NCBI GenBank assembly: GCA_020343615.1
Contig: CP070803.1
Span: 143,686 to 207,685, forward strand
Source of the DNA: Candidatus Woesearchaeota archaeon
Lineage (GTDB): Archaea > Nanobdellota > Nanobdellia > UBA10117 > GCA-020343615
Length of the DNA: 64,000 bases
Direction of reading: 5' to 3'
Under the pieces are notes generated by a model. The model saw nothing but the letters and a program-made list of their open reading frames with translations. It made no database searches and had not been told where the DNA came from. Each line of letters starts with the position of its first letter. Within the stretch, counting starts at the first letter, position 1. Made by a program: the position numbers and the translations under genes. Of the stretch, positions 30,685 through 61,485 are shown piece by piece.

Positions 30685-32769
30685 TTATTCTTCCTCGTCT
30701 TCAAGTAGTTCTCTTATTTTTTTTACTAATTTTTTCTTCTTTTTCTTTTTCTTTTTTTCTTCTTTAACAGGTTCTTCCTCTGCCTCCTCCTCTTCTTCCT
30801 CTTCTTCCGGTTCTTCTTTTTTCTTAATATTCGATTTTTTTGGTGTTTCTTTAGTTCCTTGCCAAAGTAAGATTAATATCAATATAACTATTATCGCTCC
30901 AACTATGTATTTCCAATTATCTTTTATTATAGAGATTCCTGTAACTCCTGAAAATGCTCCAGTTATTTTGTCGCCTGTTGAAGACAGTGCTTCGGTTATT
31001 CTAGATAAAATACCTTCTTCCTCGTCTTCAGTTACTTCTGATTCATTTACTTCTTCTTCAACTTCTTCCATGTCTTCCTCTTCTCCGACGCTCTCAATGT
31101 CAACTCCTTTCCCGACCTCCACAACATTAACTTCAATCGCCTCTGATGCTTGAATTGTTCCTTCTTCTAATCTCGCTGAAACAGATAATGTGTAATGGTC
31201 TCTTTCGGCTTCTTCTGGAATTGCAATGTATAAATACGCTACATCTGTTTCTCCAGCCTCAACAGTTACTGTTGATGGATTTAGCTGAGCAAAGGAAGTA
31301 CCTGCTCCTGAAATTTCTAAAGAATAGGTTGCTTCTTCTTTACCTTTATTTTCTATATTTATTGGAATTAATGCTCCTTCACCTATAGCAATATCTATTT
31401 CATCTAATTCTGCTGATAATGCTATAGCGAAGCAAATATCTTTACTAATTACTTCGAGTTCTAGAGTATCTTCACCAGAAGTTTCACTTGGTTCTTGTGA
31501 TTTGGCTATTACTTTAATATTATACGTATCGACTGTTTCTGGGGCATCTACTATAAGACTTAGTGTTTCGCTTTCCCCTTCGTCAAGTTCTACAAAGTTT
31601 TTATCTAATCTAGCCCACTCCGGGCCTTCGATAAAGATACTATACGGTTCTTTGAATTTTCCTAAATTTGTTAAAGATACTTCATAAGTTTTTGAACTTT
31701 GAGCACAAATCGTGTCTTGATTAGCAGCTAATTTTAATTCTGTAATAAAACAAGGTCTTATTGTTATGTCTATTTCCTTCTTCTGAGATACCTTTCCAGT
31801 TTCACTTTCAGCGTTTATCTCTATACTAAAGTCTCCAGTTTCATAGTAATCTGGAAAAATTGTTAAATTTACTACTTCTTCGTCTCCTTCTGCTATGAAT
31901 ACTTCAGTATCATCTAAAGTAGCCCAATCAGGTCCTGTAACACTCAGATCGTACGTGTTATCTATGATGCCTTCGTTCTTTATTAAAACAGGTATTTTTG
32001 CATGTGTATGATCACAAAAAGAATAAACATCTTTAGGGGAATCTATAGAGTATTCATAACATTCTTCTATAACTATTTGTATGTCTTTACTACTAACAGC
32101 ATCGCTATCTTCTGAAGATGCTGTTACAGTTAATCCGTATTCTCCTAAATCATCTGGTGGTGCTCTTATTCCGAGTGTAACTTCTTCTTCTTCATTTTTA
32201 TCTAGTCTTAGGGTATCTTGAGATAGAACTGCCCAATCTTCAGCTACTCCACTTAGAGATAAGGTGAAATCTTCAGTATATTCTCCAATATTCTTAATTG
32301 TAAGTTCATAACTTACTAACTCTCCTGGACATGCTGTCTTAGAATCATCATCAACTGTAATTTCTACACCATGACATGGTTCAATTATTATGTCGTAAGA
32401 AAGTTCTTCTTCTCCTGCGCTTCCACCATCTATTTTTATATTCAAATCATAAGCTCCTATTAATGCTTTGCTAGATGGTGTGATCCATACATAAACGCTT
32501 TTAGTTTTTCCAGGTTCTAAAGAGAATCCTGTTGGTGCAGCTACAGCCCATTTTTGAGCGGTGCCGGATAAAGAAACAGTAAAACTTATTGTCTCATCTC
32601 CTTTATTTTCAATAGGTATATTTATTGTTTCTGTGTGTGTTGGACATAATCTTTTTTCTCCACCCATTGCTCCTACTTCGAAGTCTTCTAATGAAAAAGC
32701 AATTGGTGTAATTAATAATAGAACTCCTATAATAAAAAATGGAATTATTTTATTCTTCATTATTATCAA
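30685..32769 (-). CDS. Secreted/cell-surface protein with repeated Ig-like domains, a C-terminal TM anchor and a poly-E/poly-K cytoplasmic tail
   Basis: N-terminal signal/anchor (IIPFFIIGVLLLITPIAFS). About five repeated units of roughly 100 aa (e.g. VSLSGTAQKWAV.., TLSLSGVAEDWAVL.., VTGPDWATL.., FIEGPEWARL..). C-terminal TM (IVGAIIVILILILLW) followed by EEPEEEEEEEEAEEEP...KKKKKKKKK. Confidence 0.6.
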   Translation of the reverse strand: MIIMKNKIIPFFIIGVLLLITPIAFSLEDFEVGAMGGEKRLCPTHTETINIPIENKGDETISFTVSLSGTAQKWAVAAPTGFSLEPGKTKSVYVWITPSSKALIGAYDLNIKIDGGSAGEEELSYDIIIEPCHGVEITVDDDSKTACPGELVSYELTIKNIGEYTEDFTLSLSGVAEDWAVLSQDTLRLDKNEEEEVTLGIRAPPDDLGEYGLTVTASSEDSDAVSSKDIQIVIEECYEYSIDSPKDVYSFCDHTHAKIPVLIKNEGIIDNTYDLSVTGPDWATLDDTEVFIAEGDEEVVNLTIFPDYYETGDFSIEINAESETGKVSQKKEIDITIRPCFITELKLAANQDTICAQSSKTYEVSLTNLGKFKEPYSIFIEGPEWARLDKNFVELDEGESETLSLIVDAPETVDTYNIKVIAKSQEPSETSGEDTLELEVISKDICFAIALSAELDEIDIAIGEGALIPINIENKGKEEATYSLEISGAGTSFAQLNPSTVTVEAGETDVAYLYIAIPEEAERDHYTLSVSARLEEGTIQASEAIEVNVVEVGKGVDIESVGEEEDMEEVEEEVNESEVTEDEEEGILSRITEALSSTGDKITGAFSGVTGISIIKDNWKYIVGAIIVILILILLWQGTKETPKKSNIKKKEEPEEEEEEEEAEEEPVKEEKKKKKKKKKLVKKIRELLEDEEE

Positions 32770-50690: not shown

Positions 50691-51878
50691 ATGCCTGAAA
50701 GTATTCTAAAGAAAGCTGGTGGATTTGTAAAAGACTCTGTTCTACTTTTAAGACCTTTACGTAAAAAAGAAAAATGGGATATTGGGAGATTGGATACATA
50801 TCTTTCTCCGGAAGAATATAGGAAAGTAAAGGGGGCATTAAAACAAGGTAAGGTTAAAATTGAACTATTAAAGTTGGGTTTTTCATTTTTAATCTCTGGA
50901 AAAGATGTTTTGCCTCGCTTAGTTTCTGAAGTTGAGTTTTTTCAAAAAATAAATAACAAGATAGAAAAAAAGTACTATGATAAATTATTTGAAGAATTTT
51001 CTCCACGAGCTTATGATGTTCTATTTCATTATTTGGCTTCAGATGTCATGTATCTCGCTGATCTAAAAAGAGCAGCAATACTTCAGTTATTCACAGAATT
51101 TCCTCTTCATGTTCTCATTATTGGTGAGTCAGATAGTGGAAAGTCTAAAATTCTGAATTCTGTCCGAACATTAGCGCCAAAATCAACTTATGGTATTGGA
51201 TCTTCAATATCTAGCAGCGGTCTAACACTATCTGTACAGGGGAAGAATGTGAAACCTGGTATTCTTCCTAGAGCTGATCAGGGTGTTTGCTGTATTTCTG
51301 AATTAAATCTAATTAAGAAGAATGAACTTTCGCAGCTTGTTTCTGTCATGGATAAAGGTTACATTAAATATGATAAAGGCGGTGCGAGTATTAAAAAAGA
51401 TGCTAGAACTAAAATACTAGCTACAGCTGAGACTAAAAAAGGTGATTTTAAATCATATTCTCTTTCACAGATAAAGAAACAGATACCGTTTAACTCTTCG
51501 TTTTTATCTAAATTTCATTTAATATTCATTACTAAAAAGCCTAGTAAAAATGAATTTAGAATTATTGCTGATACAATCATAGATGAGTCTGTTAAAAAGG
51601 ATATAAGTAAAGATGAAATTGAATTTATTAAACGATATATTGACTATAGTTCTGGAATTAGAGTAAAACTTCCTAAGAAATTAGCTAAACAAGTAGATGA
51701 ATTCGTTGTTGGTTTAAAAGATATGGAAAAAAAGTTACCTTATAACATTTCCTCTAAAACAGTTGAAGGGATTGTTTCCTTAATCAAGGCATCTGCAAGG
51801 TCTGAATTTAGAGGAGAAGTAGAAAATAAGGACTTAGAAAGAGTTTTTTCAATAGTCCGGAGCGCACTTCAAATATAA
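50691..51878 (+). CDS. Short, degenerate MCM-like AAA+ protein (395 aa) lacking the MCM N-terminal domain
   Basis: Walker A IIGESDSGKSKIL. The segment GVCCISELNLIKKNELSQLVSVMDKGYIKYDKGGASIKKDARTKILATAE aligns with the MCM Walker B/sensor/arginine-finger block (GVCCIDEFDKM...AIHEAMEQQTISIAKAGI...SARCSVLAAAN), but the Walker B Asp is replaced by Ser. Confidence 0.5.
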   Translation: MPESILKKAGGFVKDSVLLLRPLRKKEKWDIGRLDTYLSPEEYRKVKGALKQGKVKIELLKLGFSFLISGKDVLPRLVSEVEFFQKINNKIEKKYYDKLFEEFSPRAYDVLFHYLASDVMYLADLKRAAILQLFTEFPLHVLIIGESDSGKSKILNSVRTLAPKSTYGIGSSISSSGLTLSVQGKNVKPGILPRADQGVCCISELNLIKKNELSQLVSVMDKGYIKYDKGGASIKKDARTKILATAETKKGDFKSYSLSQIKKQIPFNSSFLSKFHLIFITKKPSKNEFRIIADTIIDESVKKDISKDEIEFIKRYIDYSSGIRVKLPKKLAKQVDEFVVGLKDMEKKLPYNISSKTVEGIVSLIKASARSEFRGEVENKDLERVFSIVRSALQI

Positions 51879-51913: not shown

Positions 51914-52659
51914 GCCTCGGTAGCTCAGTCGGCAAGAGCGACGGAGGGTGAAAGTTGATATGATACAACTTAATGAACGCGTTGCAGAAGAAACTGGTAT
52001 TCACATTGGTGATGGTAGCATGAGCATATATAACGGTATACCTTGTTATACTGTTGCATGTAATGCTAACAAAGAAAGAGAATACGTTGAAAAATATATA
52101 GCTCCATTAATAAAAGAAGTATATGGAATAAAACCGAAGTTAAGAATGTGGTCAGAAGGAGCATATGGATTTAGGATTGTTTCTAGAGAAGTGATAGAAT
52201 TTAAAAATAAAGAATTGGGTCTTCCATTAGGACCTAAAAAAGAAATAGAAATACCTTTTAAAATAATAAAAAATATGAACTTAGCTAAAAAATGTATACG
52301 TGGACTCTTTGATACAGATGGTTGTGTCTATATTGAAGAAAAGAAAACAGGTCCTTACCCTAGAATAGAATTACACCTAAGTTCAAAAAAAGTAGTAAAG
52401 CAGGTTAGTGAAATATTAAAGGATCTAGGATTAACTTGTTCAATTTGGGAACATAAATATCCTAATAAAAAGAATTGGTCAAACACGTATACAGTGTGTA
52501 CTCGAGGAACAAAAAATTTAAACATTTGGATGAAACAAATAGGATTCAAAAATCCTAAAAACATAAAAAAAGTATTAGCTTTCACCGGTCGAATCTTGTA
52601 TGCCGAAAGGAGTTTGGCCAAGTAAACCGTAGGTCGTGGGTTCGATTCCCACCCGGGGC
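51914..52659 (+). tRNA. tRNA gene (Thr-like D-arm and U73; isotype unresolved) interrupted by an intron of roughly 0.67 kb that encodes a LAGLIDADG endonuclease
   Basis: 5' exon GCCTCGG-TA-GCTC-AGTCGGCAA-GAGC-G-ACGGA.. and 3' exon ..GTAA-ACCGT-AGGTC-GTGGG-TTCGATT-CCCAC-CCGGGGC-T pair into a 7-bp acceptor stem (GCCTCGG/CCGGGGC) with a canonical T-arm. An oligo-T tract follows. I could not define the exact splice junctions or anticodon by hand. Confidence 0.55.
51948..52625 (+). CDS. LAGLIDADG homing endonuclease (double-motif, monomeric type) encoded inside the tRNA intron
   Basis: Two LAGLIDADG motifs: GIHIGDGSMSI and IRGLFDTDGCVYI. The ORF runs from the 5' splice region into the 3' exon, as is typical of intron-encoded HEs. 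Confidence 0.75.
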   Translation: MKVDMIQLNERVAEETGIHIGDGSMSIYNGIPCYTVACNANKEREYVEKYIAPLIKEVYGIKPKLRMWSEGAYGFRIVSREVIEFKNKELGLPLGPKKEIEIPFKIIKNMNLAKKCIRGLFDTDGCVYIEEKKTGPYPRIELHLSSKKVVKQVSEILKDLGLTCSIWEHKYPNKKNWSNTYTVCTRGTKNLNIWMKQIGFKNPKNIKKVLAFTGRILYAERSLAK

Positions 52660-53245: not shown

Positions 53246-56200
53246 CTAATCGCTTAAAGGAAGATAATCCGTGTTAGCAGAACAGTTGGAAATGATTCGG
53301 GTGTGCATTAAATCTGTGTTATTGTACCATGAAATTGACACATCTGAATCTGAAGTTGAATCTACTAGTCTTCCTTTCTTTACTGCTAAGTTTCTTCCAT
53401 TAGGATATCCTAACCAAGTAGAACCTGCATTTGCTAATTTTACACATGACCAACTACCTGCAGAATTATAACAGTATCTTAAATCATCATTTGTAGCATC
53501 ATAATGAGATATATATACAACATCATTGGAGTCTATTGCTATGCTTGTATCCCATCCAACGTCACCAGTGGTTTCTACATTCTCGCAGGTCCAAGAACCT
53601 CCAGAGTTGTTGCAGTATGATAGTGAACCATTATTCGAAGATACGTGGACAACATCATTGGAGTCTATTGCTATGCTAGTATGTTTACCACCATCTCCTA
53701 TTTGCTTGCAAGTCCAGGTTCCTCCAGAGTTGTTGCAGTATCTTAAATCATCATTACCAGCATCAGTATGAGAGATATGAACTACATTATTGGAATCTAT
53801 TGCTATGCTTGAACAGTCTCCGACCATACCTCCTAGGTCTACATTCTCGCAGGTCCAAGAACCTCCAGAGTTGTTGCAGTATCCTAACGAATAAACTACA
53901 GTAGCATTTTTGTGAGATATATGGACAACATCATTGGAGTCTATTGCTATGCTTGAAAATTCTCCGACAACACCATTAGTTGCTACATTATCGCAAGTCC
54001 AGGTTCCTCCAGAGTTGTTGCAGTATCCTAGATTACCTCCGGTTTCATTATAATATGATATATGAACAACATTAGTAGAGTCTATGGCTATGCTTGAATC
54101 GTATCCGACATTACCAGTAGTTTTTAAGTTCTTACATTCCCAATTTCCGTATGTTCCGTTACAGTACCCTAAATCATCATTTGTATCATTAAAGTAAGAT
54201 ATATGAATCATTCCGTTATAGTCTATTGCTATGCTTGAATACCTTCCTGTATCATTTTTTGACTCTACTGTTTCTGTACTACTTCCTAGCTGACACGCTC
54301 TGTCATTATACACATCATAAGCCTCATCACAGAAGCCATCATTATCATCATCGGTACAGTCATAATAATATCCGTCTCCAGAACCATTAATCCAAACATT
54401 ACCTCCTATATTGGTTCCAGAACCATAAATCCTATTTCCTGTTTTGTTTGTTGTATTAAAGTAATTAGGAGGGTTTGGGGGAGTTCCAGTAAAGCGTACA
54501 TTATCATAAGTTCCAGAATTATTTAGTAGACAATTGTATATTTGATTGTATTCAGGATAATCCGAACCACTTGGATCGAAATAGATTCCAGCCAAAGAAT
54601 TGCCTTTTATTGTTGAATTAGCTATAATATTATTGTCCGAATTGGAAGATAACCTAACTCCATAACTATTTGAATTGGTAATACTCTCTGAAATAATATT
54701 AGAATTTGAGTTATATAAAAAAATTCCATGTTGTGAATTTGAATTTGCAGTTACGTTTATGAAGTTATTGGAGTCTGAAGAATACATTTGAATTCCATAA
54801 CTATTTGAATTTGCGGTTATATTTGTGAAGTTATTGGAGTCTGAAGAAGACATATAAATCCCTACATATGATGAATATGAAGTTATATTAATAAATGTAT
54901 TGGAATTAGAATACATTAACATTATGTACTCATTATTTGAGTTATTTATATTTTCAAAATGTGCTCCATCTGTTTGAGCTATAATAATACCATTATTATC
55001 TATACTATCAGAACCTCTTATTGTTATATTATTTAAGTAAGAGTTACTTGCATTACATAAAATTATATGACTTATATTACCCTCCCAGTTTTGGATATTC
55101 ACAGTATCTTTATAGTACTTAATTGGTCTGTTCCCTGAACCTGTTATGTTTTCTATATGATTTTCACAATGATTATCTGTAGTAGTAGAAACGTATAAAT
55201 CCAGTTCGTTTTCTAAGAGTTTTGAATTAGTAATAGAACTACTATATGAATTTCGCAGATAAAATCCATATTGATTTGAATTTGCAGTTATATTTGTGAT
55301 ATTGTTGTAATCTGACATTATATAGACTCCATGTTGTGAATTTGAATTTGCAGTTACGTTTATGAAGTTACTGGAATCTGAATAAATAAAATAAATTCCT
55401 CGCCAATTTGAATTTGTGATTGTATCTTTAATAGTATTTTTGTCAGATGCACTAGTACTATAAATTCCATTAAAAAAGTCTGTGATTTTACAATTTAATA
55501 CAGTATTATTATCAGAACCTCCATTTGAATTATTTAACCAAATTCCATAATCTGTTGTTCCTGAATCATCTCCAGTAATATTATGCCCTTGACAGTCAAA
55601 TGTTACATCATCTGTTCCGTTAAAGTCTATACATCTTCCAGTTGTGGAGATATTATCAACCAAATAAATAGTATCTCCTGAACTTGCTTGACCAATCTCT
55701 GCGGTGCAGTTATCACAACTATAACAAAGAGCTCCTGCTAATTCAATAGTACAGGTAGCAGAGCAGCCATCTCCCCCTGTAGTACCTCCATCGTCACATT
55801 CTTCTCCACATTCTACTACATCATTTCCACAGAATTGGTCTAAACTGCAATCTCCATTACATCCTGGGTAAGGATCACAATCTACATTATTACCATCATC
55901 ACATTGCTCATCCCCTTCAGGATTATTATCACCACATATAGTAAGAAATACTACTTCAGTATCATATTCTCCTGTAGCTGATGTTGCTGATGAAAAATGA
56001 ATAGTATAGAAATATGTGGTTGACGCCTTTATATTACAAATAAAAGGATTTATTCGTATATATAAGGATACTGTTCCTCTAGCACTTAAATATTTTTCAG
56101 AGATATTCGCTTCAAAGGCTCCACCTGGTGAGAGATATTCGCTTTGACAAACTACTTCTCCACTTGGTTTATATATCTCTAACAACATATTTGACTCATT

Positions 56201-56440
56201 TAGTTTCATTCTTCTACTTCCTTTGTTTTTTATGTCTACTCTTAAGACATTATTTTTATACGACTCTGATAGAATTACAGGATTATATGATGTTAATGTT
56301 GTTGTTATGTCTCTTATTGCTTCCACTTCTCTTTCAGATGGTTGTATAGTCTTAACATAAAACAGAATTGATATAGATATTAATACTGTGAATATTGCTA
56401 GGATGATAATAGAGAGTATAGGGGTTAATCCTTTTTTCAT
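53246..56440 (-). CDS. Giant (1064 aa) membrane-anchored surface protein: Cys-rich module, right-handed parallel beta-helix repeats, and seven C-terminal propeller-like repeats of about 42 aa
   Basis: N-terminal anchor (LTPILSIIILAIFTVLISISILF); a Cys-rich DDGNNVDCDPYPGCNGDC..CGEECDDGG module; PbH1-like repeats (NITANSNSQHGVYI / NITANSNQYGFYL / NITANSNSYGIQM...); then 7x [SSIAIDSNDVVHISHxDAxNDDLRYCNNSGG(S/T)W(T/S)C] repeats. Confidence 0.7.
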   Translation of the reverse strand: MKKGLTPILSIIILAIFTVLISISILFYVKTIQPSEREVEAIRDITTTLTSYNPVILSESYKNNVLRVDIKNKGSRRMKLNESNMLLEIYKPSGEVVCQSEYLSPGGAFEANISEKYLSARGTVSLYIRINPFICNIKASTTYFYTIHFSSATSATGEYDTEVVFLTICGDNNPEGDEQCDDGNNVDCDPYPGCNGDCSLDQFCGNDVVECGEECDDGGTTGGDGCSATCTIELAGALCYSCDNCTAEIGQASSGDTIYLVDNISTTGRCIDFNGTDDVTFDCQGHNITGDDSGTTDYGIWLNNSNGGSDNNTVLNCKITDFFNGIYSTSASDKNTIKDTITNSNWRGIYFIYSDSSNFINVTANSNSQHGVYIMSDYNNITNITANSNQYGFYLRNSYSSSITNSKLLENELDLYVSTTTDNHCENHIENITGSGNRPIKYYKDTVNIQNWEGNISHIILCNASNSYLNNITIRGSDSIDNNGIIIAQTDGAHFENINNSNNEYIMLMYSNSNTFINITSYSSYVGIYMSSSDSNNFTNITANSNSYGIQMYSSDSNNFINVTANSNSQHGIFLYNSNSNIISESITNSNSYGVRLSSNSDNNIIANSTIKGNSLAGIYFDPSGSDYPEYNQIYNCLLNNSGTYDNVRFTGTPPNPPNYFNTTNKTGNRIYGSGTNIGGNVWINGSGDGYYYDCTDDDNDGFCDEAYDVYNDRACQLGSSTETVESKNDTGRYSSIAIDYNGMIHISYFNDTNDDLGYCNGTYGNWECKNLKTTGNVGYDSSIAIDSTNVVHISYYNETGGNLGYCNNSGGTWTCDNVATNGVVGEFSSIAIDSNDVVHISHKNATVVYSLGYCNNSGGSWTCENVDLGGMVGDCSSIAIDSNNVVHISHTDAGNDDLRYCNNSGGTWTCKQIGDGGKHTSIAIDSNDVVHVSSNNGSLSYCNNSGGSWTCENVETTGDVGWDTSIAIDSNDVVYISHYDATNDDLRYCYNSAGSWSCVKLANAGSTWLGYPNGRNLAVKKGRLVDSTSDSDVSISWYNNTDLMHTRIISNCSANTDYLPLSD

Positions 56441-56481
56441 TAATATTAATTAAAAATATAATAATATATAAATATTAGTTA

Positions 56482-57258: not shown

Positions 57259-60200
57259 TTGATGTATCGTAGAGCTAACTTCAGTGTATTTATACTTGTA
57301 TCTATATTTATCTTTATACTTTTACTTCCATCTTTTTTTATACTCTTAAAATTTGATGGTTTTACATTATATCAAAGATTTCAAGAATATGAACCATGGA
57401 TTAGTATTACGGGTGTTACTGTTGCTGAAGATGTTATGATTATTAAAAAAAATTTTGAAGAGCCATTCTTATTTCCTATAACTTTAGAAAATCAGGAATT
57501 TATGGTGGTAGAACTGACAAACTGTATCTCTGTTGGTGAAGTCGGTGAACCAAGCCTTCCAGTATGTCCTGTTCATATTTTAATTTCGCAAAGTAAGGTA
57601 ATATCTAATGTTGATGTGGATTATTTTGATGAAACTAGGATAGATTATGACTTATCTAATAAACCAATAGTTCCTGCCCAAAAAGAAATTCCTATTAGTT
57701 GTGAAGATGTGCCTGACTTCGCCTTGAATCAGGAAATTTATAATTCGGATCAACCCGTCCCAGAACTAATTTATGAAAACAAGGGTACTGGGCTTATGGT
57801 TGGTTTTAACATCTTGACGATAAATTTGAATCCAGTTAGATACATACCTAAAAATGGAGAATTATATTATTATCCTAAAATGGAGATAAGTGTTACTTTA
57901 GCAGACGGGTTTGGTGCTGTTAGTGAACAAGAGAACAAATTTTTAAGATTAAAAGAAAGTGATGTTGATCGTGTTAGTTCTTTGATAGAAAACCCTTCCA
58001 CTATTTCTTCTTATTCTGTGCCTGTTGAATTTGGAACATTGGATGCTCCTCTGAATGGAAGTTGTACTTGTGATCCTACTAAAACATATGAATATGTGAT
58101 AATAACTGATGAGTCTCTATTAAATTCTAGTGGCTACAATTACAGTTGGTATGATTTAATAAATCACCGGAGAAACTATAGTGGTTTAAATGGAACAATA
58201 GTAACTGTACAACAAATTGAGAATTGTTCTGATTATCAAAACAATACTTATCCTTTCAATGATTCTGCTCATAGTATACGTGAATTCATTAAAGATGCTT
58301 ATCAAAATTGGGGTACTGAATACGTTGTATTAGGTGGGAAGTGGAGAGATGACACCCCTGCTGAAAAAATGGTTCAATATCGTTTATTCACAGATATTTA
58401 TGAAACGGGTACTTATGATACTATGCCTTGTGACTTGTACTACAGCAATCTTGACGGTGATTGGTGGTATTCTAATTATAGTGTATGGGGTGGCGGTAAG
58501 AACAGTCCAGTTAATGATAAGTTCTCAGAGATTTATGTAGGTCGTATAACTGCTTACGATACTGAACATGTTTCAAATGCTGTACGTAAAATAATTTGGT
58601 ATGATATTAACAATCATAGTGAGGAATGGTTAGTAACTGTTACATTTGCTGGTGCTAATCTAGGTTGGGCTGTCACTTCAAAACAATACATGGAAGAATT
58701 ACGTATAGGTAACGGATCGTATTCTGAAAATATTGGTTTTGAAGAATGGAACTCTAAACATTCATATTATCCATTTTATACGTTAGAAAATAGATATTAT
58801 CATGCTGATGATACGTGGAGTGATTTCTTAGAGTCTATAGAAAATGATACTAGTTCTATTGTAAATCATATCGGACATTCGAGTTGGAATACTCCTTTTA
58901 GTCTTACTAATTGGCAATTTAGAAATAATACTTTGCCCTTTTTTGGTTACTCACAAGGTTGTCTGGCGGGTAGATTTTCTAGTGGTTTCTCTGGTTGTGA
59001 ACAAACGATGTGCAGACATCCTGAAAAACACGCCTTTGCTGTAGTTCTGAACACAGGATACGGTTATGGTAGTTTTAGTTCTACTCACGGCGCGAGTCAG
59101 CAACTGCATAAGATATTTTGGGCTTATTTTTTTAATGAAGCAGAAAATAATTTAAGTGAGTGGGAATTAGGAAGAGCTCAGTCCTATTCTAAAGATGAAT
59201 TCTCTGCATATATTGATTCTAATCATGCAAAATGTTATGTGTGGTATAGTTCACATTTATTTGGCGATCCTGCACAAAAGCTAGAAATTGCTAGTGTAAT
59301 AAAATCGAATGGTGAATCTTGTTCTTACGAATATGAATGCCTGTCTGGATACTGTGAAGATAGAGTTTGTTGTTCATCTTCATGCGGTGTTTGTCAAGCA
59401 TGTAATATAAATGGTAGTAAAGGTAATTGTTCTAATTACACACAAGGTTCTGACCCAGATAATGAGTGCTCTACAGCTGAGTGTGGTATCGGATACTGTA
59501 ACGGTTTTGGTACTTGTGAAGTATATAGTGATGGTCTAAGACATAATTGTAGTAGTTGTTATTATTGTACCGACTTGGATGAGAGTTGTGATTTAGTACC
59601 TGATGGACAAGATCCTAACAATAACTGCGCTGGAGGAAATGGCACCTCAAATGGTTGTGCGGGAGATTACTGCGACGGTTCTGGCTCCTGTCAAATTATT
59701 AGTTCTGGGGAAGGTAACTGCCCTATTTGTACATTATGTCTAGATAATGATACTGAATGTGAATATTACTCTAATAACACCCAAGATAATGTGGGTAATT
59801 TAACTTGTTTTGGTATTTGTAAGAAATGTGATGGTCTAGGTCAGTGTATCAACCAAACCGCTGGAGAGGATATATTTGACCAATGTGATGCTAATCTAGA
59901 ATGCCATATTGGTATCTGTAATGGTCTTGGAGAATGTGATGTCTATTCTAATGGTGAAAAAGGCTCTTGTGGACCTTGTAAGTATTGTAATGATAGTGAC
60001 TCTAATTGTGAATATGTTCCTTCTGGGCAAGACTTATTTAGTGAGTGTGTTGGTTTGCAGTGTGATGGAGACGCTATAACTCCATATTATTGGGGTTGGG
60101 ACTCATTAACATGTTACTATAGTTCAAATATCTTTTCTAGAGATCACTATTGTGACGGTTCTGGCTCTTGTTATGCTGCTGAAGATTTATGTCCTTCACA

Positions 60201-61485
60201 AGGAAAGGATGGCTCTACGAATATTACTTGTAATTGTGCTGAAGCACTAACTGGTTGTAATGGAACTGTTGTTGGAAGCTGTCTAAATTGTGCTCCTCTG
60301 AATAATTCCGCCCCAACAGCCCCTATCCTTTTGTATCCTGCAGATGAAACTAATAATACTAATAATTCTGTAGATTTTGATTGGGATGATTCTATAGATA
60401 TAGATGGGGATAATATCTCCTATTATTTAGCAATAAATTCGTCGGTAAACTCTACTCAAATTACTTATAGTGTTATGGAATCAAGTTATTCTTCATATTC
60501 TACTATTGATAACGTAACATATTATTGGAGAGTAAAAGCTAGTGATGGTTTAGATAACAGTTCTTGGTCATCTACTTATAAATTTATAGAAATAATTGAA
60601 GTAGAAGAAGAACCTGAAGAGGAAGAAGATCAGACTCCTAGCGGAGGCAGCGGCTCTTCAGGAGGAGGTGGAGGTGGTAGTCCCTCTCCTATTCTCAGTA
60701 GTGCTTCAACAATAACCCCGCCCTCTATTAATTACGACTTATCTGAAACAAATGAAGAAGAGATTAAAGAAGTTGTTAAGTCTAAGCTTAGTGAAATAAG
60801 CAGCAACACTAAAGAAGTTTACAAAGATGTTTCAGTTGATGTGTCTGTTAATCATCCTAGCTCTGAAAGTACCTCTCTTGATTTTAGTTTTAAGTATGGT
60901 AAAGGTACGCCTCTAAAAAAAGTGATGATATTCATTGAAGTTCCTAAATCCTTTGCTGAATCTGCAGAAGATATAACTTTTGAGTCTAGTGTCCCTTATA
61001 GTAAAATGGAAGTTGTTGAAAATGATCCTGTTTATTATTTCTACTATGAAAATCTGGAATCTGAGAATATATCTTATTCTTTCCATAATAATGAATATAG
61101 TATAGGAAGCAAGGTCATTGAAGATGTAAGTCAACCATGGGTTTTCTTTGAAACTGAAGAAGAAGTTGTTCCAGAATGTGGTAATAATGTAATAGAAAAA
61201 GGGGAAGAATGTGATAGTGTTAGTGGACTAATTGAAGGTTATAGATGCTCTGCTGAATGCAAACTAGTTCCTATCCTTCAATGCATTGATGATGGGGATT
61301 GTACTCAAGAAGAAACAGAATTAGGTGAGTGTAATGACTGTTTAATTAGTACTCCTGCACCTACTAGTGCTTATGTTATATTATATCAAAAGTGGTTTGT
61401 TGTATTACTTATTATCTTTATAATATGTACTCTCATATTAGGACTTAAACTAGAAATTAAGAATAAGAAAAAAAGGAAGAAATAG
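57259..61485 (+). CDS. Giant (1408 aa) surface protein: N-terminal anchor, putative clan-CD (gingipain/C25-like) cysteine peptidase domain, Cys-rich EGF-like repeats, FN3 domain, Gly/Ser linker, and a C-terminal TM anchor with a basic tail
   Basis: N-terminal TM (FSVFILVSIFIFILLLPSFFILL). Candidate His/Cys dyad: VNHIGHSSW ... FFGYSQGCLAG, about 27 aa apart. Repeated CxxC..C..NC..GxGxCE modules. FN3-like APTAPILLYPAD...YYWRVKASDG. SGGSGSSGGGGGGSPSP linker. C-terminal WFVVLLIIFIICTLILGL-KLEIKNKKKRKK. Confidence 0.7.
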   Translation: MMYRRANFSVFILVSIFIFILLLPSFFILLKFDGFTLYQRFQEYEPWISITGVTVAEDVMIIKKNFEEPFLFPITLENQEFMVVELTNCISVGEVGEPSLPVCPVHILISQSKVISNVDVDYFDETRIDYDLSNKPIVPAQKEIPISCEDVPDFALNQEIYNSDQPVPELIYENKGTGLMVGFNILTINLNPVRYIPKNGELYYYPKMEISVTLADGFGAVSEQENKFLRLKESDVDRVSSLIENPSTISSYSVPVEFGTLDAPLNGSCTCDPTKTYEYVIITDESLLNSSGYNYSWYDLINHRRNYSGLNGTIVTVQQIENCSDYQNNTYPFNDSAHSIREFIKDAYQNWGTEYVVLGGKWRDDTPAEKMVQYRLFTDIYETGTYDTMPCDLYYSNLDGDWWYSNYSVWGGGKNSPVNDKFSEIYVGRITAYDTEHVSNAVRKIIWYDINNHSEEWLVTVTFAGANLGWAVTSKQYMEELRIGNGSYSENIGFEEWNSKHSYYPFYTLENRYYHADDTWSDFLESIENDTSSIVNHIGHSSWNTPFSLTNWQFRNNTLPFFGYSQGCLAGRFSSGFSGCEQTMCRHPEKHAFAVVLNTGYGYGSFSSTHGASQQLHKIFWAYFFNEAENNLSEWELGRAQSYSKDEFSAYIDSNHAKCYVWYSSHLFGDPAQKLEIASVIKSNGESCSYEYECLSGYCEDRVCCSSSCGVCQACNINGSKGNCSNYTQGSDPDNECSTAECGIGYCNGFGTCEVYSDGLRHNCSSCYYCTDLDESCDLVPDGQDPNNNCAGGNGTSNGCAGDYCDGSGSCQIISSGEGNCPICTLCLDNDTECEYYSNNTQDNVGNLTCFGICKKCDGLGQCINQTAGEDIFDQCDANLECHIGICNGLGECDVYSNGEKGSCGPCKYCNDSDSNCEYVPSGQDLFSECVGLQCDGDAITPYYWGWDSLTCYYSSNIFSRDHYCDGSGSCYAAEDLCPSQGKDGSTNITCNCAEALTGCNGTVVGSCLNCAPLNNSAPTAPILLYPADETNNTNNSVDFDWDDSIDIDGDNISYYLAINSSVNSTQITYSVMESSYSSYSTIDNVTYYWRVKASDGLDNSSWSSTYKFIEIIEVEEEPEEEEDQTPSGGSGSSGGGGGGSPSPILSSASTITPPSINYDLSETNEEEIKEVVKSKLSEISSNTKEVYKDVSVDVSVNHPSSESTSLDFSFKYGKGTPLKKVMIFIEVPKSFAESAEDITFESSVPYSKMEVVENDPVYYFYYENLESENISYSFHNNEYSIGSKVIEDVSQPWVFFETEEEVVPECGNNVIEKGEECDSVSGLIEGYRCSAECKLVPILQCIDDGDCTQEETELGECNDCLISTPAPTSAYVILYQKWFVVLLIIFIICTLILGLKLEIKNKKKRKK

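Follow-up and report, generated by a model that had tools for sequence, protein, structure and literature searches.

A stretch of 64,000 nt from Candidatus Woesearchaeota archaeon (contig CP070803.1, positions 143,686 to 207,685; hereafter the window) carries on its minus strand a gene for a 1064-aa protein. The organism is a DPANN-type archaeon, very small and probably symbiotic, and we interpret the protein, with moderate confidence, as a surface adhesin of modular, pilin-like build that binds glycans. The chain appears to join a prepilin-like signal and a pilin- or archaellin-like domain to a Cys-rich module, a parallel beta-helix and a seven-bladed beta-propeller (Table 1). We infer the function of the adhesin, its disulfides and its display on a pilus; the folds and the genomic context suggest glycan binding or cleavage. 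The encoded protein is 100% identical to an NCBI entry (P0001, Candidatus Woesearchaeota, contig of 919,475 bp) with the title 'MAG: right-handed parallel beta-helix repeat-containing protein [Candidatus Woesearchaeota archaeon]'. Although catalogued, it has received only a generic annotation. This protein and its relatives in pilus operons are concrete candidates for host recognition in DPANN archaea, which are thought to live attached to other cells and whose host-recognising molecules are almost unknown.

The propeller domain is composed of six canonical repeats of 44-48 aa and a degenerate seventh unit. The canonical repeats share the signature [ST]SIAIDSNDVVHISH..NDDLRYCNNSGG[ST]WTC, and each contains a CX8C cysteine pair. 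Their [ST]SIAID anchors are found at residues 735, 782, 829, 877, 921 and 965 (spacing 47, 47, 48, 44 and 44), and the pairwise identity among the six is 43-74%, with a mean of 57%. A single repeat used as the query recovered four of the other five with E-values of 3e-13 to 8e-9 (nominal database of 1e8 residues). At the DNA level, Tandem Repeats Finder (TRF) detected units of 141-144 bp, corresponding to one blade, in 2.8-2.9 copies at 53708-54122. The seventh unit (residues ~1018-1050) lacks the cysteine pair, gives a non-significant match to the repeat hidden Markov model (HMM; i-E 0.71), and is visible mainly as the last four strands of the AlphaFold2 (AF2) model. The initial annotation, made from the letters and their open reading frames (ORFs), had proposed seven highly regular 42-aa repeats with two Cys in each, forming a seven-bladed propeller. 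The repeats are indeed far beyond chance and were recovered by TRF, the repeat HMM and the single-repeat search. Their number and length are corrected here to six canonical units of 44-48 aa plus one degenerate unit, and the two Cys per repeat hold for the six. Structure prediction returned the propeller fold rather than unrelated structures.

When the C-terminal domain was modelled alone with 45 homologues, AF2 gave a predicted local distance difference test score (pLDDT) of 85.4, a predicted template modelling score (pTM) of 0.84 and 28 strands, which are read as seven blades of four in this model. The closure of the ring was taken from fold matches, not from coordinates. In a Foldseek search of the PDB, the Photorhabdus PLL/PHL seven-bladed lectins came first (E 2e-14, template modelling (TM) score 0.61-0.74, identity 10-14%), and the further neighbours were the GH145 enzyme BT3686, the PL42 enzyme FoRham1, the lectins CV39L and AofleA, PL24 and sialidases. 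TM scores of 0.6-0.74 were obtained across the seven-bladed sugar-binding or sugar-cleaving neighbours (PLL/PHL, GH145, PL42 and CV39L). Propeller matches dominated again when the full-length model (mean pLDDT 81.7) was compared with the PDB.

The Asp-box is a loop between strands 3 and 4 with the consensus X-X-(S/t)-X-(D/n)-X-G-X-(T/s)-(W/f/y) (PMC2716378). The segment YCNNSGG[TS]W in the strand 3-4 loop of our repeats fits it at N5, G7, T/S9 and W10 and misfits at position 3, which is Cys. No Pfam family matched the propeller region, and BNR_4 (PF15892) was not matched at E<=1. BNR_4, the family of the PL42 lyase FoRham1 (PMC8377490), was reached by 10 of the 45 homologues, with a best E-value of 8.5e-11; a few homologues reach DUF7253 or RCC1_2 via summed weak matches. 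For these reasons we class the C-terminal domain as a lectin-like, Asp-box-like propeller from a family that is essentially undescribed and has no adequate Pfam model.

This family is large. A search of 1.84 billion cluster representatives (50% identity) with the propeller domain alone gave 15,673 matches at E<=1e-3, or 2,829 at the stricter E<=1e-30. The members are bacterial and archaeal, are mostly named 'hypothetical', and often form part of giant multidomain proteins. Their repeat consensus is tSIAlDSndkvHISYyDxtNxDLKYAtnxsGsW. A huge propeller repeat family is barely captured by the current domain databases. Because its nearest structures are lectins and glycan-cleaving enzymes, it is perhaps a major unrecognised class of microbial carbohydrate binders.

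The CX8C pairs of the six canonical blades (760/769, 807/816, 855/864, 902/911, 943/952 and 990/999) are located in the Asp-box-like hairpin that joins strand 3 to strand 4, the outer strands of each blade. We surveyed 2,613 repeats from 270 proteins of the propeller family; these proteins are phylogenetically related, and the repeats are hence non-independent observations. Ala occupies the first site in 73% of the repeats and Cys in 7%. Where the first site is Cys (182 repeats), the second is also Cys in 160; among the other 2,431 repeats, it is Cys in 42. Most of the family lacks the pair, and 24 proteins ('CC type') retain it in nearly every canonical blade, for example, P0241 (24 of 26) and P0246 (11 of 11). 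The conservation of the pair and the strand positions suggest one disulfide per blade in six blades, and at most six. It is also conceivable, though very improbable in our view, that the pairs are metal ligands or redox-active thiols and that the propeller is a metal-binding or redox module. Two Cys per blade in a seven-fold pseudo-symmetric arrangement, a probably anaerobic organism, single-Cys variants in other lineages, and a canonical Asp-box geometry that is too wide for a disulfide (argued from PMC2716378) would all suit such a module. It is disfavoured by the placement of the Cys in outer strands, distant between blades, which makes multi-Cys metal sites unlikely, by the strict co-retention of the pair, and by the presence in the same protein of a repeat that is named and modelled as disulfide-rich.

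The propeller behaves as an optional cassette. The ortholog P0003 (595 aa) is intact and lies in the same rpS10-gene-MCM synteny in another assembly. It aligns to residues 1-424 and 499-715 and to the DYLPLSD tail, and it has neither the propeller nor ~75 residues of the helix. The paralog P0002 (1037 aa) is also intact and is encoded on the same contig outside the window; it contains the propeller and lacks the Cys-rich module. The gene is thus intact, and modules have been gained and lost in its evolution. The full-length domain combination was found only in the two paralogs of this genome. C716 and C1053 flank the propeller, and the same two Cys stand four residues apart in the propeller-less ortholog (C-DSNN-C), which suggests, from the sequences, that they may clamp the propeller at its base where it is inserted. 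A pseudogene or a chance ORF is ruled out by the exact NCBI entry, the intact paralog and the intact syntenic ortholog.

The carriers of the closest propellers point to pili. The propellers of P0121-P0127 and P0145 are 47-54% identical to that of the window protein, are of the CC type, and reside on proteins of ~500-575 aa, most of which have class III-like N-termini of the form KG/Q or KG/L (the slash marks the processing site). Two of these proteins, P0125 and P0145, have propellers 49-53% identical to the query with the CC pair and class III-like N-termini, and both are encoded inside archaeal type IV pilus loci, which contain a T2SSE ATPase with PilB3_C, a pair of T2SSF genes and small pilins above the TIGR02537 threshold. 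By a crude rule, a class III-like N-terminus was assigned to 10 of 20 Met-initiated CC-type proteins versus 16 of 222 other Met-initiated proteins. Some CC-type relatives also carry DUF2341, a domain that has been linked to predicted pilus-tip adhesins by Makarova et al. (PMC4858521). Gain, loss and transfer of a cassette from gene to gene form the pattern expected of a host-range determinant.

In the two archaeal type IV pilus loci, the cassette sits on different pilin-like genes. In L002 (9606-11644), the propeller is inserted in one pilin-like gene, between residues 129 and 481. In L003 (10001-12180), the upstream pilin-like gene carries it as a fusion, whereas the first gene has no propeller.

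At the N-terminus of the window protein, the sequence MKKG/LTPILSIIILAIFTVLISISILFY has Lys at position -2 and Gly at -1, followed by a hydrophobic H-domain. Class III signals have a charged residue at -2, Gly, Ala or Ser at -1, and a processing site ahead of the H-domain (PMC4371748). The sequence agrees with these rules; the corresponding segments are MKRG/ITP in the ortholog and MKKG/IVS in the paralog. In the full-length AF2 model, a long helix (residues 6-32) and a short helix (36-46) precede an eight-strand sandwich (residues 54-167), and pLDDT is ~75-87 over most of residues 50-150. The N-terminal domains of the window protein and the paralog are homologous (E 1e-16), and that of the paralog passes Pfam Arch_flagellin (30.5 bits versus a cutoff of 29.5). 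The three best PDB profile matches of the N-terminal domain were all deposited as flagellin chains, at non-significant E-values of 0.05-0.45. No match, not even the query itself, was retrieved by word-index homology search when the N-terminal 168 aa were the input. The N-terminus looks, more specifically than a membrane anchor, like a class III (prepilin-like) signal with a pilin/archaellin-like domain.

The same domain also bears on another explanation, in which the protein is a structural component of the envelope, S-layer-associated or ArlF/ArlG-like, whose helix and propeller brace the wall with neither a specific ligand nor incorporation into a pilus. The paralog N-terminal domain matches ArlG (2.8e-8, 33.9 bits) below the equivalog cutoff of 110 bits, and ArlF also below its cutoff. 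The window protein itself falls outside the ArlF/ArlG equivalogs, with 15.5 bits against ArlF (cutoff 110). The position of the gene among housekeeping genes, directly after rpS10, in two genomes and the many sequons in a chain rich in Asn, Ser and Thr, like S-layer glycoproteins, are compatible with an envelope role. However, the ortholog does without the propeller and the paralog without the Cys-rich module, which suits an accessory adhesin better than a lattice protein. Moreover, no S-layer family was matched, and the related propeller proteins are found in pilus operons, not beside S-layer genes. We consider a structural envelope role quite unlikely.

Between the pilin-like domain and the propeller, the surface adhesin that we favour would hold a stalk and a rod. 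The Cys-rich module passes the threshold of TIGR02232 (myxo_disulf_rpt; 3.1e-10, 39.7 bits versus a cutoff of 20.8) in two stretches, the best at residues 203-233. AF2 confidence is low across it (172-232), and it is probably a disulfide-knotted stalk. The beta-helix passes Pfam NosD (PF05048; 1.8e-20, 73.8 bits versus 23.6) and Beta_helix (PF13229; 2.7e-15, 56.8 bits versus 25.9), its self-identity is maximal at a lag of 22 residues, and its pLDDT lies at 92-98 across residues ~240-620. The helix opens with a CxxCxxC cap and contains 23 N-x-S/T sequons; the whole protein has 38 Cys and 37 sequons, versus 27.6 +/- 4.6 sequons in shuffled sequences, which speaks for an extracellular protein. 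A 66-bp tandem duplication at 54740-54904 (2.5 copies, 79% match) corresponds to one 22-aa coil of the helix, and this repeat and the blade-sized repeat at 53708-54122 point to fairly recent internal duplications. AF2 confidence is low again in the region of the acidic linker (residues 663-717). The candidate assignment as a NosD ortholog was rejected, with 24.5 bits against TIGR04247 (cutoff 300) and no nos genes nearby.

The remaining statements of the initial annotation, including its suggestion of a glycan-binding or glycan-degrading adhesin, fared well at the level of fold and plausible role. The single ORF of 1064 aa is real, and its strand (minus), which had been left unstated, is added here. 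The hydrophobic N-terminus announced as a membrane anchor, the Cys/Asp-rich module and the right-handed beta-helix were all confirmed by the analyses described above. The gene is not the frameshifted pseudogene that had been considered there, as the intact paralog and ortholog demonstrate.

The folds of the rod and the propeller could also be those of a surface-anchored polysaccharide depolymerase. The helix (as in pectate lyases and tailspikes), the propeller (as in PL42, GH145, PL24/25 or sialidases) or both would then cleave glycans of the host envelope or environmental polysaccharides, for feeding or for breaching the host S-layer. The beta-helix is of the CASH/pectin-lyase fold class, the structural neighbours of the propeller include GH145, PL42, PL24 and sialidase propellers, and its homologues reach the BNR_4 family of FoRham1. 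A depolymerase role has also been proposed for the pectin-lyase-like proteins of Nanobdella (bioRxiv 10.1101/2023.10.27.564410). However, the query reaches neither BNR_4 nor any CAZy-linked Pfam family, its top structural matches are lectins rather than enzymes, and no catalytic residues could be mapped, including the catalytic His/Arg (His48 in GH145; His85 and Arg166 in FoRham1). In a viral library, the helix obtained only generic matches of the tailspike and pectin-lyase type. Helices of the NosD type are common among archaeal surface proteins, and we know of no demonstrated lyase activity for them, which counts against a depolymerase. The blades are very regular (43-74% identity), as is typical of multivalent binders, whereas Asp-box glycosidase propellers are characteristically irregular (PMC2716378). 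On balance, we regard a depolymerase as unlikely.

A working model for the adhesin can be outlined as follows. The protein would be exported through Sec, and a prepilin peptidase would probably cut it after Gly4. The N-terminal helix would anchor the protein either in the membrane or, as a minor or tip subunit, in a filament resembling a type IV pilus. From there, the propeller would be carried outward by the Cys-rich stalk and by the beta-helix, which would be glycosylated and act as a rigid spacer or as a glycan-binding rod. The distal propeller may serve as a multivalent lectin for sugars of a host or partner envelope or for a polysaccharide. In six blades, the predicted CX8C disulfide would staple the Asp-box-like hairpin between strands 3 and 4, and C716 and C1053 may clamp the inserted propeller at its base.

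Several observations weigh against a pilus-displayed, disulfide-stapled lectin of this kind. None of TIGR02537 (arch_flag_Nterm), Pilin_N and Arch_flagellin appeared among the NCBIfam and Pfam matches of the query, whether it was scanned whole or as residues 1-168. Its pilin-like assignment therefore draws on the paralog, the model and the motif rules. In ArlF/ArlG-like proteins, a similar N-terminus serves as an anchor that stays uncleaved. Among the ~40 ORFs scanned in the 64-kb window, none was a type IV pilus gene, and a type IV pilus locus inside the window was accordingly rejected. The propeller is only 10-14% identical to the lectins, with no sequence-level match to solved structures: searches of the PDB with the full protein, the profiles A1 and A2, and the homologue P0132 gave no solved sequence relative of the propeller or the helix, only a marginal NosD match (E 0.067). 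Woesearchaeota are known chiefly from anoxic settings, and there disulfides outside the cell are less certain. Some bacterial homologues, such as P0150 ('222222-') and P0165 ('-11111-'), have a single Cys site in nearly every blade, and these single-Cys blades are not explained by the disulfide idea. In the canonical Asp-box hairpin, positions 3 and 12 are ~8 Å apart (geometry argued from PMC2716378); because of this spacing, a disulfide would need a shifted hairpin register. Finally, the PLL/PHL lectins use two Trp per fucose site (PMC5584973), whereas the repeat consensus of the query provides one Trp per blade (GxW).

Table 1. Features of the 1064-aa protein and its gene, with positions in the window.
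Feature	Residues	Positions	Strand	Basis or remark
Whole coding sequence, 1064 aa plus stop		53246..56440	-	Single ORF
TATA-box-like element TTTATATA		56465..56472	-	25-32 nt upstream of ATG, inside the 41-bp rpS10 spacer; sequence read directly
Class III (prepilin-type) signal-like segment, MKKG/LTPILSIIILAIFTVLISISILFY	1-32	56345..56440	-	Motif rules and AF2
Short helix and eight-strand beta-sandwich, pilin/archaellin/ArlF-G-like globular domain	33-167	55940..56344	-	AF2
Two acidic Cys-rich repeats, 9 Cys	169-233	55742..55936	-	TIGR02232 / DUF4215, 'Myxococcus cysteine-rich repeat'
Right-handed parallel beta-helix, NosD/CASH type, ~18 coils	237-690	54371..55732	-	Pfam, lag analysis and AF2
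Acidic linker YDCTDDDNDGFCDEAYDVYNDRAC, DxDxDG-like loop, Cys 695/704/716	691-716	54293..54370	-	Conserved in paralog and ortholog
Seven-bladed, 28-strand beta-propeller	717-1053	53282..54292	-	AF2 and repeats; span 719-1050 in the full-length AF2 model
Conserved C-terminal tail SANTDYLPLSD	1054-1064	53249..53281	-	Present also in the propeller-less ortholog

The G+C content of the window is 33%, and its genes include archaeal housekeeping genes for topo VI, CDC48, aIF-2B, EF-1alpha, EF-2, MCM and tRNA synthetases. The neighbours of the adhesin gene are rpS10, a C25 peptidase, MCM and EF-1alpha. A spacer of 41 bp (56441-56481) separates the adhesin gene from rpS10, which lies upstream of it on the same strand, and rpS10 is followed by the adhesin gene after a ~40-bp spacer in two different genomes (the second spacer is at L001 1658-1697). 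The TATA-box-like element TTTATATA in this spacer may be the gene's own promoter, in which case the mRNA would be leaderless; in an AT-rich genome, this reading of the sequence is tentative.

On the opposite strand, a 1408-aa Peptidase_C25 (gingipain-like) protein is encoded at 57259-61485 (+), between EF-1alpha and rpS10, two genes that are normally expected to be adjacent in archaea. It has an N-terminal hydrophobic segment, a C-terminal transmembrane helix and a KKKRKK tail, and it may be a second surface effector beside the adhesin. The MCM ORF at 50691-51878 (+) encodes only 395 aa, with the P-loop and lid and without the N-terminal domain, and an equally short MCM is found in the related contig L001 (4267-5454). 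In the window, the short MCM is followed by a free-standing LAGLIDADG endonuclease ORF at 51948-52625 (+). Another predicted surface protein, of 694 aa, is encoded at 30685-32769 (-) and has immunoglobulin-like domains (FixG_C and NPCBM_assoc) and a long poly-Glu/poly-Lys C-terminal tail.

Compared with known systems, the combination of a pilin-like carrier, a Cys stalk, a CASH helix and a stapled Asp-box-like propeller is a new variant of known adhesin designs and no new kind of system. The best solved structural matches of the propeller are the PLL/PHL lectins (PDB 8Q83, 8Q81, 6RGR, 5MXF and 5C9L), which have seven four-stranded blades, repeats of ~47-50 aa and multivalent inter-blade sugar sites (PMC5584973). 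However, these are free soluble lectins, with one intermolecular disulfide in PHL, whereas the query has intrablade CX8C pairs and its propeller is a cassette in an anchored protein of 1064 aa. Membership of the PLL/PHL family was rejected, as no PDB match was obtained by phmmer or profile. BNR_4/PL42 (formerly GH145) propellers, represented by FoRham1 (7ESN) and BT3686 (5MUL), are also structural neighbours, and the repeat motif agrees with the Asp-box consensus in part. Position 3 of the Asp-box is Ser/Thr; it is Cys in the query and Ala in 73% of the family repeats, and the query differs further from BNR_4 in its unusually regular blades and its lack of a match to that family. The query passes the thresholds of NosD/CASH and TIGR02232 (DUF4215), though it is no NosD ortholog.

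The bacterial modular type IV pilins, such as PilB of Streptococcus sanguinis, and the archaeal class III signal-peptide proteins provide a precedent for the carrier. In them, a pilin-type N-terminal module carries a grafted functional module (PMC8179133; PMC4858521), as it would in our protein. The cargo of the query, ~900 aa, is far larger than that of PilB, and the query passes no pilin HMM. Among cultivated DPANN archaea, Nanobdella has pectin-lyase-like and lectin-like surface proteins that have been proposed to act in host interaction (bioRxiv 10.1101/2023.10.27.564410). By description, they resemble our protein: they are 908-1320 aa long, with a parallel beta-helix and 36-52 sequons, and they are proposed to recognise or degrade the host envelope. 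However, their helix is combined with Ig-like folds, the lectin-like protein is a concanavalin-type sandwich and not a propeller, and a pilin-like N-terminus is unmentioned in the preprint (bioRxiv 10.1101/2023.10.27.564410).

The closest functional parallels are PilX2 of Saccharibacteria TM7x and PilY1 of Pseudomonas, in which a hepta-bladed propeller is placed on a pilus-associated protein, like the relatives of the query propeller. PilX2 is the only minor pilin required for the function of the host-tethering type IV pilus T4P-2 of episymbiotic Saccharibacteria, and it has been proposed as the adhesin of this pilus in an ultrasmall episymbiont (PMC12206443). Both proteins are bacterial and have no sequence relationship with the query, and PilX2 has RCC1 repeats and no PilD signal. 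Unlike them, the query gene lies outside a type IV pilus locus and adds a beta-helix and a Cys-rich stalk. As a tentative possibility, we suggest that the propeller belongs to a very large, unnamed, lectin-type seven-bladed family whose disulfide-stapled archaeal branch is a mobile plug-in cassette in DPANN pilin-like carriers and makes the host-recognition tips of type IV pili. Such tips would be an archaeal counterpart of PilX2 and PilY1, arrived at independently, and the window protein, with its added beta-helix rod, would be their most elaborate version.

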